In this document: positions 50,415 through 57,421 of the stretch, piece after piece
How the letters are laid out: every line of letters begins with the position of its first letter
How positions within the stretch are numbered: the stretch's first letter is position 1
NCBI GenBank assembly: GCA_951406725.2
Contig: OX597825.1
Location: forward strand, 83,514,001 to 83,578,000
Length of the DNA stretch: 64,000 nt
From: Octopus vulgaris
Taxonomy: Eukaryota
Reading direction: 5' to 3'
The notes under the pieces: generated by a model
Seen by the model: the letters and a program-made list of their open reading frames with translations, nothing else
Database searches by the model: none
Told to the model about the DNA's origin: nothing
Position numbers and translations under genes: made by a program

Positions 50415-50417
<3 letters not shown>

Positions 50418-50834
50418 ATTATATAGAAGGAGCTTCTACAGGACTAGTACTGTTTCATTCAAGAGAAATCTTCAGGAAGCTATTTAACAAGAATTGTATT
50501 AGCATTTATACATTTAGAGGAGTGGTGGTGGGGGACTTTTGGGGGTAGGCATAGCGCAAAATATCATACTTGGGGAGTGGTCAAGGTAATAAAAAAATAA
50601 AAAAATAAAAATAAAAAAATAAAATAAAAGAATAAAAATAAAAAATATAAAAAATATAAAAAATATAAAAAATATAAAAAATATATATATAAAAAAATAT
50701 ATAAAAAAATATATATATATAAAATATATATATAAAATATATATATAAAATATATATAAAATATATATATATAAAATATATATATATATATACATACATA
50801 CACATATATGTGTATGTATGTATATATATGTGTA

Positions 50835-50876
<42 letters not shown>

Positions 50877-51335
50877 TATGTATCTGTATGTAGGAGTATA
50901 TATGTGTGTGTGTGTATGTATGTGCGGGTATATATATATATATATATATATGTATATTTATTGGTGTATATGTATAGACTAGCCTCCTAAAGTGTAGACA
51001 CGAATCTGTAGGTACGAGTACGTATGTGTATATACGTGAACGTATGTAGATGTTTGTATGTATGAATATAACGCGTGCGTACGTGTATGTGTATGAGTGT
51101 ACGAATGGGTGAATGTACGTGCTAATGAGTGTGCGTGCGGGAATGAGTACTTGCCTTCTAGTAGACAGACAAACGGACAAGCAGCTATTGCCAGGATTCT
51201 TAGCCTTAGCGATCAAAGATAACAAAAGTAATAAATGAAGATAATAAAATTAAAATTAGGGAATGGGCCTGTATTGGATTGTATATATATATATGTATAT
51301 GTATATTTGTATGTATGTATGTGTGTATGTGTAGG

Positions 51336-51386
<51 letters not shown>

Positions 51387-51899
51387 AGATATATGTGTAT
51401 GTGCGTATGTGTGTGTAGATACGTATACATGTGTGTATAGGTATAAGTGAGAATCTCCTTATTTACCTATAACTCTTTCCCCCCTTTTTTTATATATATA
51501 TTTTATATATATATTTTATATATATATATTTTTTTTATATATTTTTTTATATATATTTTTTATATTTTTTATATTTTTTATATTTTTTATATTTTTTATA
51601 TTTTTTATTTTTATTCTTTTATTTTATTTTTTTATTTTTTATTTTTTTATTTTTTTATTACCTTGACCACTCCCCCAAGTATGATATTTTGCGCTATGCC
51701 TACCCCCAAAAAGTCCCCCACCACCACTCCTCTAAATGTATAAATGCTAATACAATTCTTGTTAAATAGCTTCCTGAAGATTTCTCTTGAATGAAACAGT
51801 ACTAGTCCTGTAGAAGCTCCTTCTATATAATAAATTAATTTTACTCTGCTATGTATTGAGTACCTTACTTACTGTGGTTAACCCCGAATCAACCCGGGA

Positions 51900-51903
<4 letters not shown>
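50415..51903 (+). mobile_element. Non-autonomous Penelope-like element with ~370-bp inverted terminal arms, each carrying a hammerhead fold
   Basis: 50415-50790 is the reverse complement of ~51487-51834; hammerheads at 50431-50481 (-) and 51768-51818 (+); unique core 50960-51290 repeated at 56130-56460. Confidence 0.85.
51768..51818 (+). ncRNA. Type I hammerhead ribozyme fold with atypical stem II
   Basis: AGCUUC-CUGAAGA-UUUC(UCUU)GAAU-GAA-ACAG(UACUAGUC)CUGU-A^GAAGCU. 6-bp stem I, 4-bp stem III, GUA triplet; U-U at the base of stem II. Confidence 0.65.
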
Positions 51904-51951
<48 letters not shown>

Positions 51952-51954
51952 TAT

Positions 51955-53428: not shown

Positions 53429-53844
53429 AAGGCGGGGATCTGGCAGAATCGTTAGCACACCGGGCGAAATGCTTAGCGGTATTTCGCTTGCCGTTACGCT
53501 CCGAGTTCAAATTCCGCCGGGGTCGACTTTGTCTTTCATCCTTTCAGGGTCGATTAAATAAGTACCAATTACGCACTGGGGTCGATATAATGGACTTAAT
53601 CCGTTCGTCTGTCCCTGTTTGTCCCCTGTGTTTAGCCCCTTGTGGGTAGTAAAGAAATAGGTATTTTGTCTGTCGTTTACGTACTGAGTTCAAATTCCTC
53701 CGAGGTCGACTTTGCCTTTCATCCTTTCGGGGTCAATTAAATAAGTACCAGTTAGGCACTGGGGTCGATATAATCCACTTAATCCGTTTGTCTGTCTTTG
53801 TTTGTCTCCTCTATGTTTAGCCCCTTGTGGGTAGTAAATAAATA
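53429..53844 (+). mobile_element. SINE family A dimer bounded by a single 17-bp target-site duplication
   Basis: AAAACACAC(T/C)ACCTGAC at 53408-53424 and 53845-53861; internal junction AAAGAAATAG|GTATTTT at ~53660. Confidence 0.9.
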
Positions 53845-55194
53845 AAAACACACCACCTGACCGAATCCTTGCAACACAGTCGTGTCCAATAAAGAAGTGG
53901 TGTAGTAGGTAGGCATTGGTGGTAAAGCAAGCGATAAGAATAAGTTTATGAATAAGTGCATTAACTGTACACAATCGCTACAGTTAACCTCAGAAATATG
54001 CTCCTTCAAGTATTTAGTCTTCTCGGTTTTTTTATGTCACCTGATCAAGATTCTTTTCACAGAGATTAAAACCAGTACAATGAAATTGCTTAGATTTTGT
54101 TAAAATGTTAACGACATACCTGTGTTTTTGCTCCTTGTAGATGCATGGTTGTTTCTGTTCAATATTTATAAAAGGCAGAAACGTTCAGATCTGAAACGTG
54201 GCAGTTGATGATTGGATGAAAGTTGTTTGTATTATCAATGGTCATCGAACTTCCCGTCCGTTGAACTCTGTTGAATACTTACAACCCCCACCAATTACCT
54301 CTTGCTTTCAGCTTAAATATACATATATGTATGTGGGTGCTCCGTCTGTGTTTGTGTGTGTGTGTCTGTGTGTGTGTGTGTGTGTACTTATCTACCCACT
54401 CGAAACCCGATCGCTATCTTATCTTTTCTTTCTGTCGAACACTCGGTCAAATATAATTGTTTACTTGGCTGTCTAATAATTACTTTATTCAATTCATTCT
54501 CCCAATTGACAGAGAAACACTATATCTCTCTCTAAAACACTCTTTCAACCACAGTTTCCTTCTAAATTCGTATCTGATATTTTTCCAACTGTATATTAGC
54601 AACATTACTTTTACTCAATTATTTCCTATCCCCCAGAGAGCTTACTTTCAGACGTGTATCAACACTGGCCACACTTTTGCCTTCCGAACATATAATGAAA
54701 TATTAGTCAATGTCGACATGGTAATTCACGAAGCTCCAGATTATGTCTATATAACTTAAACAGTTGTATTGACGATTGATATAAAGGCAAAAAGGGATCT
54801 CCGCCGATTTCGATTATGAGTCTTGCAATTGTTCGGTAAAATTAACCGTATGCCATTAAGTTGCTGTGTCGGTGGTTGAATATTCCATGGCAATTGTATC
54901 TTTCTTCCCAGACCTGTCTCTGTCAAATTCTCAACTTTGACCCGTTTGAAATATTTTCAAAAGAAATTTTGCGATTCTGGTTGTGGATAAAAATGACTGT
55001 GGGAACAAATTCAGCAATTTTTGGCAAAATATGTACCTTTTTGCCAGGTTATAACATAAGGTTAGTGAAATATTTAAAATGTTTACAGTTGGATAGATAC
55101 ACAAATATAACAAAATAATTTGACAAAAAATGTGAATTTTTAATTATATTCTGAGATTTTACAAAAACAACAAAAATATTATTAAAAAAATAAT

Positions 55195-55458
55195 AGTTAT
55201 GACGACGAATGTTCCGAACAACGGAACAGCATCTGCGAATTAACCTGCGAGTGACTGAACGCTCCGCAGACACGCGTAAACTTGGCGTAGTTCTTAGGGA
55301 TATTCACCCTGATACAGAATGTGACAAGACTGGCGCTAGCTAAGTGGACAGGAGCAACGTGAAATAGTGTCTTGATCGAGGAAAGAACGCGCTCCCGGGA
55401 ATTATTCACGGCCGTGCAACTGTGAACCAAATACCGTAACCAACATGCTGCGCGCTTA
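55195..55458 (-). mobile_element. SINE family C, diverged
   Basis: GGAGCAACGTGAAATAGTGTCTTGATCGAGG...CCGGGAATT; body matches the reverse complement of 45980-46300. Confidence 0.7.
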
Positions 55459-55714
55459 TAACTGCACCTATAACTTTAAAATATCAGATAGAATCGGTGT
55501 GACTGTGCGTAACAAGTCTGGTACTTTGAGATACTAGAAAACCCCGTTCCGTATACCCAGTTTTAGCAAGACGGAATGGATCGTGCCGATGCTATAATAA
55601 AACATGCTGACCACTACGGCTCATCTATGCTAGTAGCTTTTATATCTGCCGCTAAACGCTGACGTTGTGGCTGACTTCTGTGATGTTACTGATTGATCAA
55701 GCAGAGTTCAGAAG

Positions 55715-56011
55715 TAGGAAATATGTGTGCGTGTATGCGTATACGTGTATGTATGTATGTGTGTGCGTAGATTTGTATATGTATGTGTGAGTGTGTATAT
55801 ATATATATATATATATATACATATATATAGATGGGTGTGTGTATGCGTATAAATGCATGTAAGTATGGATGTATGGATGTATGTATGTATGTATACGTAT
55901 GTATGTGTGTATGTGTGTATGTATATATATATGTGTGTATATATGTTTGTGTATGTATATATATGTGTATGTATGTGTGTGTATATGTATGTGTGTATGT
56001 GTATGTATGTG

Positions 56012-56062
<51 letters not shown>

Positions 56063-57419
56063 TATGTATCTGTATGTAGGAGTATATATGTGTGTGTGTG
56101 TATGTATATGCGGGTATATATATATATATGTATATTTATTGGTGTATATGTATAGACTAGCCTCCTAAAGTGTAGACACGAATCTGTAGGTACGAGTACG
56201 TATGTGTATATACGTGAACGTATGTAGATGTTTGTATGTATGAATATAACGCGTGCGTACGTGTATGTGTATGAGTGTACGAATGGGTGAATGTACGTGC
56301 TAATGAGTGTGCGTGCGAGAATGAGTACTTGCCTTCTAGTAGACAGACAAATGGACATGCAGCCATTGCCAGGATTCTTAGCCCTAGCGATCAAAGATAA
56401 CAAAAGTAATAAATGAAGATAATAAAATTAAAATTAGGGAATGGGCCTGTATTGGATTGTATATATATATATGTATATGTATATTTGTATGTATGTATGT
56501 GTGTATGTGTAGGTATGTATAGGTACACATGTGTATGTGTATGTGTATGTATATATGTGTGTATGTATGTATGTGCACACATGTATATATATGTATGCGT
56601 GTATATGTTTATATATATATGTGTGTACATAGGTGTATGTGGGTGTATGTATATATAGGTGTAAATATGTGTATATAGGGAACTAGGTGTGTTGTGTGTG
56701 CATGAGTGTATGTGCGTATGAATATATATTTTTATGTGTATATATGTATGTGTGGTCGTGGGTATATATATATATATACATGTGTGTATGCGTGCATGCA
56801 TGGGAGTGAGTGTATGCATATATACGTGTGTGTATGTGTAGACAGGTATAGGCATGTGCATGTGTATAAATTTGTATATGTGGGCGGGTGTATGTATGTG
56901 TGTATGTAGATATGTATGTATGTGTGTACATATGTATATGTATATATGTATATATATATATATGTATATATATATGTGTGTGTATATATATGTGTATGCA
57001 TGTATGTGTGTGTAGATACGTATACATGTGTGTATAGGTATAAGTGAGAATCTCCTTATTTACCTATAACTCTATCCCCCCTTTTTTTATATATATATTT
57101 TTTTATATATATATTTTATATATATATTTTTTTATATATATTTTTTATATTTTTTATTTATTTTTTTATTTTATTTTTTTATTTTTTATTTTTTTATTTT
57201 TTATTTATCTATTCTTTCATCTAACTTACCACTGACTCCTTGACCACTCCCCCAAGTATGATATTTTGCGCTATGCCTACCCCCAAAAAGTCCCCCACCA
57301 CCACTCCTTTAAACCTGCCTAAATGTATAAATGCTAATACAATTCTTGTTAAATAGCTTCCTGAAGATTTCTCTTGAATGAAACAGTACTAGTCCTGTAG
57401 AAGCTCCTTCTATATAATA

Positions 57420-57421
<2 letters not shown>
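55715..57421 (+). mobile_element. Second, longer copy of the hammerhead-bearing non-coding element (hammerhead 57355-57405)
   Basis: About 5 substitutions in the ~330-bp unique core versus 50960-51290; identical ribozyme; extra low-complexity segment 56520-57000. Confidence 0.85.

Follow-up and report, generated by a model that had tools for sequence, protein, structure and literature searches.

Probable 5'-truncated insertions of a Hydra-clade Penelope-like element with predicted hammerheads in the Octopus vulgaris genome

The window analysed here (64 000 nt of Octopus vulgaris contig OX597825.1) very probably holds three independent, 5'-truncated insertions of a Hydra-clade Penelope-like element, full-length copies of which lie elsewhere and encode a reverse transcriptase (RT)–GIY-YIG protein between identical predicted hammerheads. 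The features are as follows (window positions):

50415–50807, minus strand: inverted arm of insertion 1, 5'-truncated (T-rich tract, pLTR, hammerhead); left junction exact, inner junction approximate (~50807, in a palindromic microsatellite)
50431–50481, minus strand: predicted type I hammerhead of the inverted arm, from the descriptor scan; predicted cut after 50437
50808–51904, plus strand: forward, tailed arm of insertion 1, a subfamily 1 copy of the element's final ~1.1 kb
50960–51290, plus strand: unique 331-bp core of the element's 3' UTR
51768–51818, plus strand: predicted type I hammerhead with U·U at the base of stem II and an 8-nt loop III; predicted cut after 51812
51835–51904, plus strand: tail, ~70 nt long, which spans from one insertion end point (+22 relative to the cut) to the other (+92)
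51905–55720, no strand: host DNA between the insertions, outside the element (unrelated dispersed repeats and microsatellites)
55724–57421, plus strand: insertion 2, a lone 5'-truncated 1.7-kb arm, subfamily 2, with a short end (+22)
57355–57405, plus strand: type I hammerhead predicted in insertion 2, with its cut expected after 57399
38672–38804, minus strand: older subfamily, hammerhead (38754–38804, predicted cut after 38760) plus tail
38811–38859, plus strand: inverted arm with a short end, the partner of the tailed arm in the older insertion; its incomplete hammerhead lacks the first core strand

Window insertions and the predicted hammerhead

The initial annotation had described a unit ending in a hammerhead at 50.8–51.9 and 55.7–57.4 kb, with an inverted arm that gives the first copy hammerheads on both strands and with about five core differences between copies, and all of this is indeed found: the arm spans 50415 to ~50807 and the cores differ at 5 of 331 positions. 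The short end of this arm lies 22 nt beyond the predicted cut site and abuts (TA)n, while the forward arm aligns at 96.6% to positions 4168–5284 of the unit at locus L051; its tail corresponds to the 5' UTR ahead of the ORF in full-length copies. Copy 2 has neither tail nor partner arm (5' junction at 55721–55726) and is also set apart from copy 1 by subfamily-specific indels. At 38.7 kb, where an older terminus had been noted, an older variant is present, but the locus is more than a terminus, namely a small fold-back insertion in its own right with a second, incomplete hammerhead. The ORF of the element was not found in the window, and most copies of the family lack it as well. A repeat search of the window was dominated by microsatellites.

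The motif consists of a 6-bp stem I, CUGAAGA, a 3-bp stem II flanked by U on either side, GAAA, a 4-bp stem III with an 8-nt loop, and a cut after GUA; it thus has the conserved core of a type I hammerhead (CUGAnGA, GAAA, UH) together with stems I–III. Scanning both strands of the window with a descriptor gave five matches, i.e. four complete hammerheads and one unrelated match at 42343; the two hammerheads on the plus strand of the young copies (51768–51818 and 57355–57405) are identical. As annotated, U·U replaces G10.1-C11.1 at the base of stem II in 4 of 4 complete copies, and the three young copies carry ACUAGU in loop III. The view that this stem II makes the hammerhead atypical does not hold, as U·U is reported at this position in 14 of 25 published Hydra hammerheads (PMC8557442). 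The motif folded no better than shuffled sequences (z −0.17), the Rfam scan of 51700–51910 gave no hammerhead match at E≤10, in that of the window all 150 matches listed (of 303) were to miRNAs and due to microsatellites, and no covariation was seen among the five window copies, the stems being invariant there. Because folding, Rfam and covariation give no support, the case for a ribozyme is carried by the exact core, the stems and the position in a Penelope pLTR. When 40 nt of downstream sequence are included, the predicted probability of stem I drops from 0.94–0.99 to ≤0.04, and folding predicts a competing hairpin across the cut site.

The full-length element and its clade

Full-length copies on other contigs are made up of a pLTR with hammerhead and tail, a 713-aa ORF, a ~2.9-kb microsatellite-rich 3' UTR and a second predicted hammerhead identical to the first, with the ORF inside a cut-to-cut unit of 5192 or 5387 nt (5.2–5.4 kb). 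The pLTRs stand in partial tandem, as in EN+ Penelope-like elements; the C4 and C9 copies show the order arm–pLTR–ORF–UTR–pLTR. In L121/L175 the ORF is uninterrupted. It contains RWR at 38, DKT at 116, YRDD and LVY/YIG, as well as the CxCX5C linker CNCHDKTTC at 567, the CxxC motif CDLC at 667 and the CxH motif CMH at 695; the CCHH (paired-His) pattern is absent from its endonuclease (EN). We found 1188 relatives (E≤0.001), mostly of ~700 aa and alignable through RT and EN. Neither an RT nor a GIY-YIG match was obtained in a Pfam search of the ORF, and a PDB sequence search matched no solved structure; GIY-YIG was therefore called from motifs, by which this is a single ORF with RT and C-terminal GIY-YIG, as expected of EN+ Penelope-like elements. 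In the assembly, 31 of 34 copies examined have a frame break between RT and EN at one C-run. Since the frame is kept in short-read contigs of every sequencing run (4 of 4) and in copies whose C-run is interrupted by a substitution, we read the break as a probable assembly error and dropped a programmed frameshift. Contigs from runs tentatively taken to be RNA also span the ORF, an observation that is evidence neither of transcription nor of transcript ends.

Three probes from the element gave 187, 1195 and 939 candidates, and for each probe all of the 40 matches scored were 99–100% identical. Judged by these sequences the family is dispersed and young, as had been supposed from the window, and no simple local duplication.

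Its assignment to the Hydra clade, made from motifs and by-eye comparison with the supplement of PMC8557442 (Craig et al. 2021), appears sound: the RWK-type motif, the change of DKG to DKT, the CxCX5C linker, CxxC and CxH, the absence of CCHH and insertion into (TA)n are all found. Hydra elements (C-terminal EN+) are described there as having a ~700-aa RT-EN ORF, a type I hammerhead near the 3' end with a 4-bp stem III, (TA)n targets, an inverted 5'-truncated arm and a one-sided tail; the octopus family shares the ORF motifs, the 4-bp stem III, U·U, the (TA)n targets, the inverted arm and the tail. It differs in length (5.2–5.4 kb, because of the ~2.9-kb 3' UTR, versus <3 kb, which is a general tendency of the clade and not diagnostic), in its tail (~70 nt versus 30–40 bp), in loop III (8 nt versus 1–3) and in a stem II of only 3 bp (PMC8557442). 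An octopus member, Hydra-1_Obim, is listed in the same source; by eye its protein and hammerhead are unlike ours, which therefore belong to a different family. According to Cervera and de la Pena (2014, PMC4209133), Penelope pLTRs both carry hammerheads, occur as opposite-strand pairs 100–700 bp apart and have a palindromic loop III, and a circular template was proposed. The octopus family resembles them in all three structural features; most metazoan hammerheads in that study, however, are minimal, without helix III and with G10.1-C11.1, whereas the octopus hammerhead has a full helix III like the fungal/protist and Hydra forms.

Insertion end points and competing explanations

The insertions end at two fixed points, ~22 and ~92 nt beyond the predicted cut. 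Inverted pairs account for 17 of 23 insertions, and in each of the 17 one end is short and the other tailed; the same is true of 8 of 8 further pairs (L053–L060), i.e. of 25 out of 25 in total, matching the inverted 5'-truncated copy with a tail at one end that is typical of EN+ Penelope elements. The remaining 6 of 23 insertions lack a partner arm, like window copy 2. Cores differ at 0.08 positions within arm pairs versus 1.16 for arms of different pairs (n=12, permutation test, p=1e-4), and the two arms of a pair share private variants, which could come partly from gene conversion or polishing. In one set, 30 of 30 ends run into a TA-type repeat; in the first locus set 27 of 30 do so and the other 3 continue from the tail directly into the ORF. 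Of the 15 copies scored that have a complete ORF, none begins at the 5' cut; all reach beyond it on the upstream side, by 71 to >1390 nt, and this suggests that the template was uncut or circular. Our literature search, which covered openly accessible papers, found no description of this family or of a strict short/long pairing rule.

The window unit had initially been taken for a retrozyme-like family, that is, an independent non-coding family whose short hammerhead-bounded unit is excised, turned into a circle and mobilised in trans. The ORF is indeed missing from the window and from most copies, and animal retrozymes have been proposed to descend from Penelope pLTRs (bioRxiv 10.64898/2026.07.22.740005). 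We nevertheless consider this reading very improbable: there is no fixed unit, as 5' ends vary from within the hammerhead to within the ORF; short tandem hammerhead repeats were not found among the loci fetched; and all parts of the unit map to the 3' end of an ORF-bearing element in which the ORF is contiguous. Published metazoan non-LTR retrozymes, in contrast, are described as 150–450-bp non-coding tandem units (Cervera and de la Pena 2020, PMC7229834), whereas the octopus unit is the truncated end of an autonomous coding element. That a local segmental duplication or an assembly artefact made both copies and the inversion has a negligible probability, even though the assembly has homopolymer errors in this family, given that the flanks of the window copies are not duplicated, that the inverted layout recurs at 25 other loci and that copies 1 and 2 bear distinct subfamily-diagnostic indels, each common to copies on other contigs. 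The two copies are therefore independent insertions, and this also bears on the ~5.6-kb RNA that cleavage at 51812 and 57399 of one transcript had been suggested to release. The distance is correct (5587 nt), and with identical hammerheads on the plus strand a read-through transcript would hold both; but two subfamilies inserted independently around unrelated repeats, the two-copy layout was not seen at other loci, the element's own unit measures 5192 or 5387 nt, and downstream sequence is predicted to block both ribozymes. The spacing is thus a coincidence of position, and a functional RNA of this kind is hardly credible.

A further explanation accepts the same element and is compatible with its Penelope-like identity; here the hammerhead would be catalytically dead or irrelevant and kept only within a protein-binding pLTR structure. 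The weak 3-bp stem II, the predicted competing hairpin and the fact that every insertion crosses the cut site speak for it, as does the green anole Poseidon element PAc, whose hammerhead is reported to be protein-assisted and dispensable, its mutants still inserting in vitro (Frangieh et al. 2024, PMC11167929). Against it, subfamilies with ORFs ~92% alike have the same core and the same stems I and III but differ in loop II, in loop III and at the core's variable position; and HHR_Amex2, an axolotl retrozyme hammerhead that is also of type I and also has mismatched U·U at the base of helix II, reaches 22% cleavage in 1 h as a monomer and more as a dimer (PMC7229834). On balance a dead hammerhead seems to us rather unlikely.

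A possible insertion mechanism and its meaning

For PAc, work in vitro showed that RT starts at two internal positions beyond the hammerhead on its downstream side, by which the tail is defined, that both strands are nicked and extended at AT-rich targets, and that uncut RNA serves as template (PMC11167929). The octopus family is alike in its two internal end points defining a tail and in its AT-rich targets; PAc, however, belongs to a different clade, its start sites lie inside the ORF rather than in the 5' UTR, and in vitro they show no strand preference, whereas the octopus pairs have one of each. By analogy with the anole element, the octopus protein may nick (TA)n on both strands and prime reverse transcription at two places inside the RNA, a separate one for each strand. 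Each cDNA would extend back across the hammerhead and end prematurely within the 3' UTR; joining the two would produce a head-to-head insertion that is short at one end and tailed at the other. An RNA unbroken at the cut site would be needed as template, either the precursor before cleavage or a circle closed again by ligation. The hammerhead would probably be slow, being held off by the predicted hairpin, and dimerisation through loop III or the protein might assist it. Beyond this we put forward, as a tentative idea that is possible without being probable, that one dimeric RT-endonuclease complex per insertion primes twice on a single hammerhead-derived circular or multimeric RNA, its subunits sitting at +22 and +92, and that the cut-site hairpin switches the ribozyme off once the template has been made. 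If true, such a complex would explain together the 25 of 25 short/tailed pairs, the private variants shared by arms and the copies of more than unit length, and this young family with its intact ORF is a ready substrate for testing it.

Taken together, the window copies are mostly ordinary: they are transposon remnants of a known Penelope (Hydra) type, their predicted hammerhead has published look-alikes, and Penelope elements have already been described with inverted arms, with a tail on one side and with (TA)n targets. How the inverted ends form and what purpose the hammerhead has are, according to PMC8557442 and PMC11167929, still open questions. Because the family is very young and combines numerous near-identical insertions with an intact ORF, the mechanism of Penelope insertion can be read from its end points, and asymmetric ends, matched arms and the lack of copies starting at the cut constrain any model of it. 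In addition, a microsatellite-like 3' UTR of 2.9 kb can travel on a retrotransposon and can therefore seed compound microsatellites.

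Insertions in the window and their genome-wide relatives

Inspection of the window sequence bore out the repeats and hammerheads described in the initial annotation, and a descriptor scan of both strands returned five hammerhead-like matches:

Cut after 50437, minus strand: young hammerhead
Cut after 51812, plus strand: young hammerhead, identical
Cut after 57399, plus strand: young hammerhead, identical
Cut after 38760, minus strand: older hammerhead variant
42335-42407 (match at 42343): lone pattern whose stem II is long; it has no relation to the Penelope-like family and may be a chance occurrence

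Insertions of this family end at one of two positions past the predicted cut, about +22 (short ends) and about +92 (tailed ends). Three lie in the window, together with other repeats:

50415-51904 (insertion 1): the element's final 1.1 kb, tail included (50808-51904, plus), and a 0.4-kb inverted short-ended arm (50415-50807, minus)
55724-57421, plus (insertion 2): last 1.7 kb of the element, short-ended, without a partner arm
38.7-kb locus: very small fold-back insertion belonging to an older subfamily, the third in the window
36054-36752, also 53429-53844 and 27209-27504: 184-bp unit repeated 3.8 times in tandem; it belongs to a dispersed SINE-like repeat also present between insertions 1 and 2
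5433-5873, plus: LINE-type ORF fragment (Pfam zf-RVT, 1.3e-6)
47950-48585, plus: LINE-type ORF fragment, no Pfam match
7695-7814: near-perfect inverted repeat whose two strands match miRNA hairpin models with equal scores, under the gathering thresholds

The cores (the unique 331-bp stretch of the 3' UTR) of insertions 1 and 2 differ at 5 of 331 positions, as initially estimated. Insertion 2 carries indels that are absent from insertion 1 and present in copies on other contigs, and its spacer of 607 nt (versus 188 nt) is typical of a second subfamily; the DNA between the two is an unrelated repeat with no ORF or upstream-UTR match. Because the copies belong to different subfamilies and flank unrelated DNA, neither a local duplication nor a purposeful ~5.6-kb RNA released by cutting at both, as had been proposed, is supported. 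The older subfamily includes an ORF-bearing member (L103, 92% identical).

A genome search, suggested earlier as a check of copy number, found many near-identical copies over many contigs, not local ones only. As 40 candidates were scored per search, the counts are lower bounds and not copy numbers: all 40 scored matches to the terminus (of 187 candidates) were 99-100% identical and spread over many contigs, all 40 to the copy 2 terminus (of 939) were 100% identical on the two largest contigs alone, and all 40 to the core (of 1195) were likewise 99-100% identical, many in outward-facing pairs 2-6 kb apart. The older hammerhead variant gave a separate set of matches at 94-96% (353 candidates). 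The element family is real, dispersed and young. We also observed minimal head-to-head insertions of 150-250 bp with two hammerhead ends (L034:7728-7927, L048:8865-9045, L092, L098, L101, L105, L113), several of which sit in (TA)n and adjoin another family copy.

Element anatomy, reading frame and identity

Among the first 30 loci, 27 have a fixed tail followed by (TA)n, whereas the other 3 run on into coding sequence. The full element consists of an inverted arm, a truncated pseudo-LTR (hammerhead and tail), an ORF, a microsatellite-rich 2.9-kb 3' UTR holding the core and a T-rich tract, and another hammerhead identical to the first; the cut-to-cut unit measures 5192 nt in L051 and 5387 nt in L175. 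The 3' UTR (L051:6324-9238) is mostly low-complexity TA/TG repeat with 78% purine-pyrimidine alternation, and is nonetheless copied along with the element.

In 31 of the 34 assembled copies inspected (L061-L090; also L051:5655) the frame breaks at one C-run between reverse transcriptase (RT) and endonuclease. A longer C-run occurs in the short-read contigs of all four runs, at all depth in two and about 30% in the others, and the frame is kept in L121 and L122, whose C-run is broken by a substitution. Recoding was rejected on these grounds; we read the break as a probable homopolymer error of the assembly, through which many intact ORFs have probably escaped annotation.

The uninterrupted 713-aa ORF of L121 and L175 carries the motifs RWR, DKT, YRDD, CxCX5C, LVY...YIG, CxxC and CxH. 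A search with its RT part gave 1188 relatives at E<=0.001; most are about 700 aa long, and they align onward through the endonuclease. Craig et al. 2021 (PMC8557442) define the Hydra clade by these motifs together with insertion into (TA)n and a hammerhead of canonical form, and list inverted 5'-truncated copies and a one-ended tail as general Penelope features. Since Pfam and PDB searches gave no name for the ORF, the putative Hydra-clade assignment is based on motifs. The octopus member in the supplement of that paper, Hydra-1_Obim, differs by eye in hammerhead and protein. A repeat survey of Octopus vulgaris (PMC13282606) reports recent activity for 31 Penelope-like families, to which the passages on them assign no clade, so that the present family may be among them. 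A second Hydra-type family (L139, L140, L171-L174, e.g. G000:C8:62063585-62065243) has a 43% identical protein, many unbroken ~727-aa frames genome-wide, and its own hammerhead version with a stem II of just 2 bp closed by A·A.

The hammerhead compared with its clade

The stems are invariant among the window copies: stem II is a U, a 3-bp helix and a U, and stem III has 4 bp and an 8-nt loop. The fold is no more stable than shuffled sequences (z -0.17), and Rfam did not recognise the motif. The U-U closure had been called atypical; by our own count from File S2 of PMC8557442, however, 14 of the 25 Hydra families listed there have U at both positions, following the first core strand and preceding GAA. 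Four of these 25 share the ACAG/CUGU stem III, and their loops III measure 1-3 nt. The unusual traits of the octopus family are its 8-nt loop III and 3-bp stem II. Helix II of the axolotl HHR_Amex2 likewise has a basal U·U, and this hammerhead cleaves 22% in 1 h as a monomer and better as a dimer (PMC7229834). The loop III palindrome, 6 nt in the young copies, is shortened to CUAG in the older one (42/43 hammerheads), and the predicted duplex energies (-15.2 and -12.8 kcal/mol, respectively) make dimer formation through loop III possible. A predicted hairpin spanning the cut site (window 51807-51826), kept in all three subfamilies, rivals stem I, whose predicted probability falls from 0.94-0.99 to <=0.04 with 40 nt of downstream sequence, in young and old subfamilies alike.

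End points, paired arms and the template

Thirty matches to the copy 2 terminus (of 939 candidates), picked irrespective of tail, represent 23 insertions, 17 of them inverted pairs and 6 single arms (within 9.5 kb). Each of the 17 pairs has one short and one tailed end, as do 8/8 pairs chosen from core matches; three single arms are short and three tailed. Arms are identical, pair-private variants included, in 13 of 15 pairs with both cores (L036, with split cores, was left out), and in subfamily 1 (n=12) the mean core difference is 0.08 within versus 1.16 between pairs (permutation p=1e-4).

All 15 scored ORF-complete copies continue upstream beyond the 5' cut, by 71 nt to more than 1390 nt (lengths are approximate in microsatellite), and none begins at it. 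L133, missed by the pattern, also includes the hammerhead; L123, L131 and L137 begin downstream of the tail. As tandem genomic copies of the element exist, more-than-unit copies are by themselves no proof of a circle. For an anole Penelope, Frangieh et al. (PMC11167929) demonstrated nicking and extension of both DNA strands, reverse transcription from two internal sites bounding the tail, and a hammerhead that needs the protein in order to cleave and proved dispensable in vitro. The simplest reading, we infer, is that the octopus element would use the same chemistry, with one start site per strand, on a template either uncut or re-closed across the hammerhead. The element is an additional member of an already known Penelope type, and the mechanistic counts of ends, arms and upstream reach are the part worth keeping.
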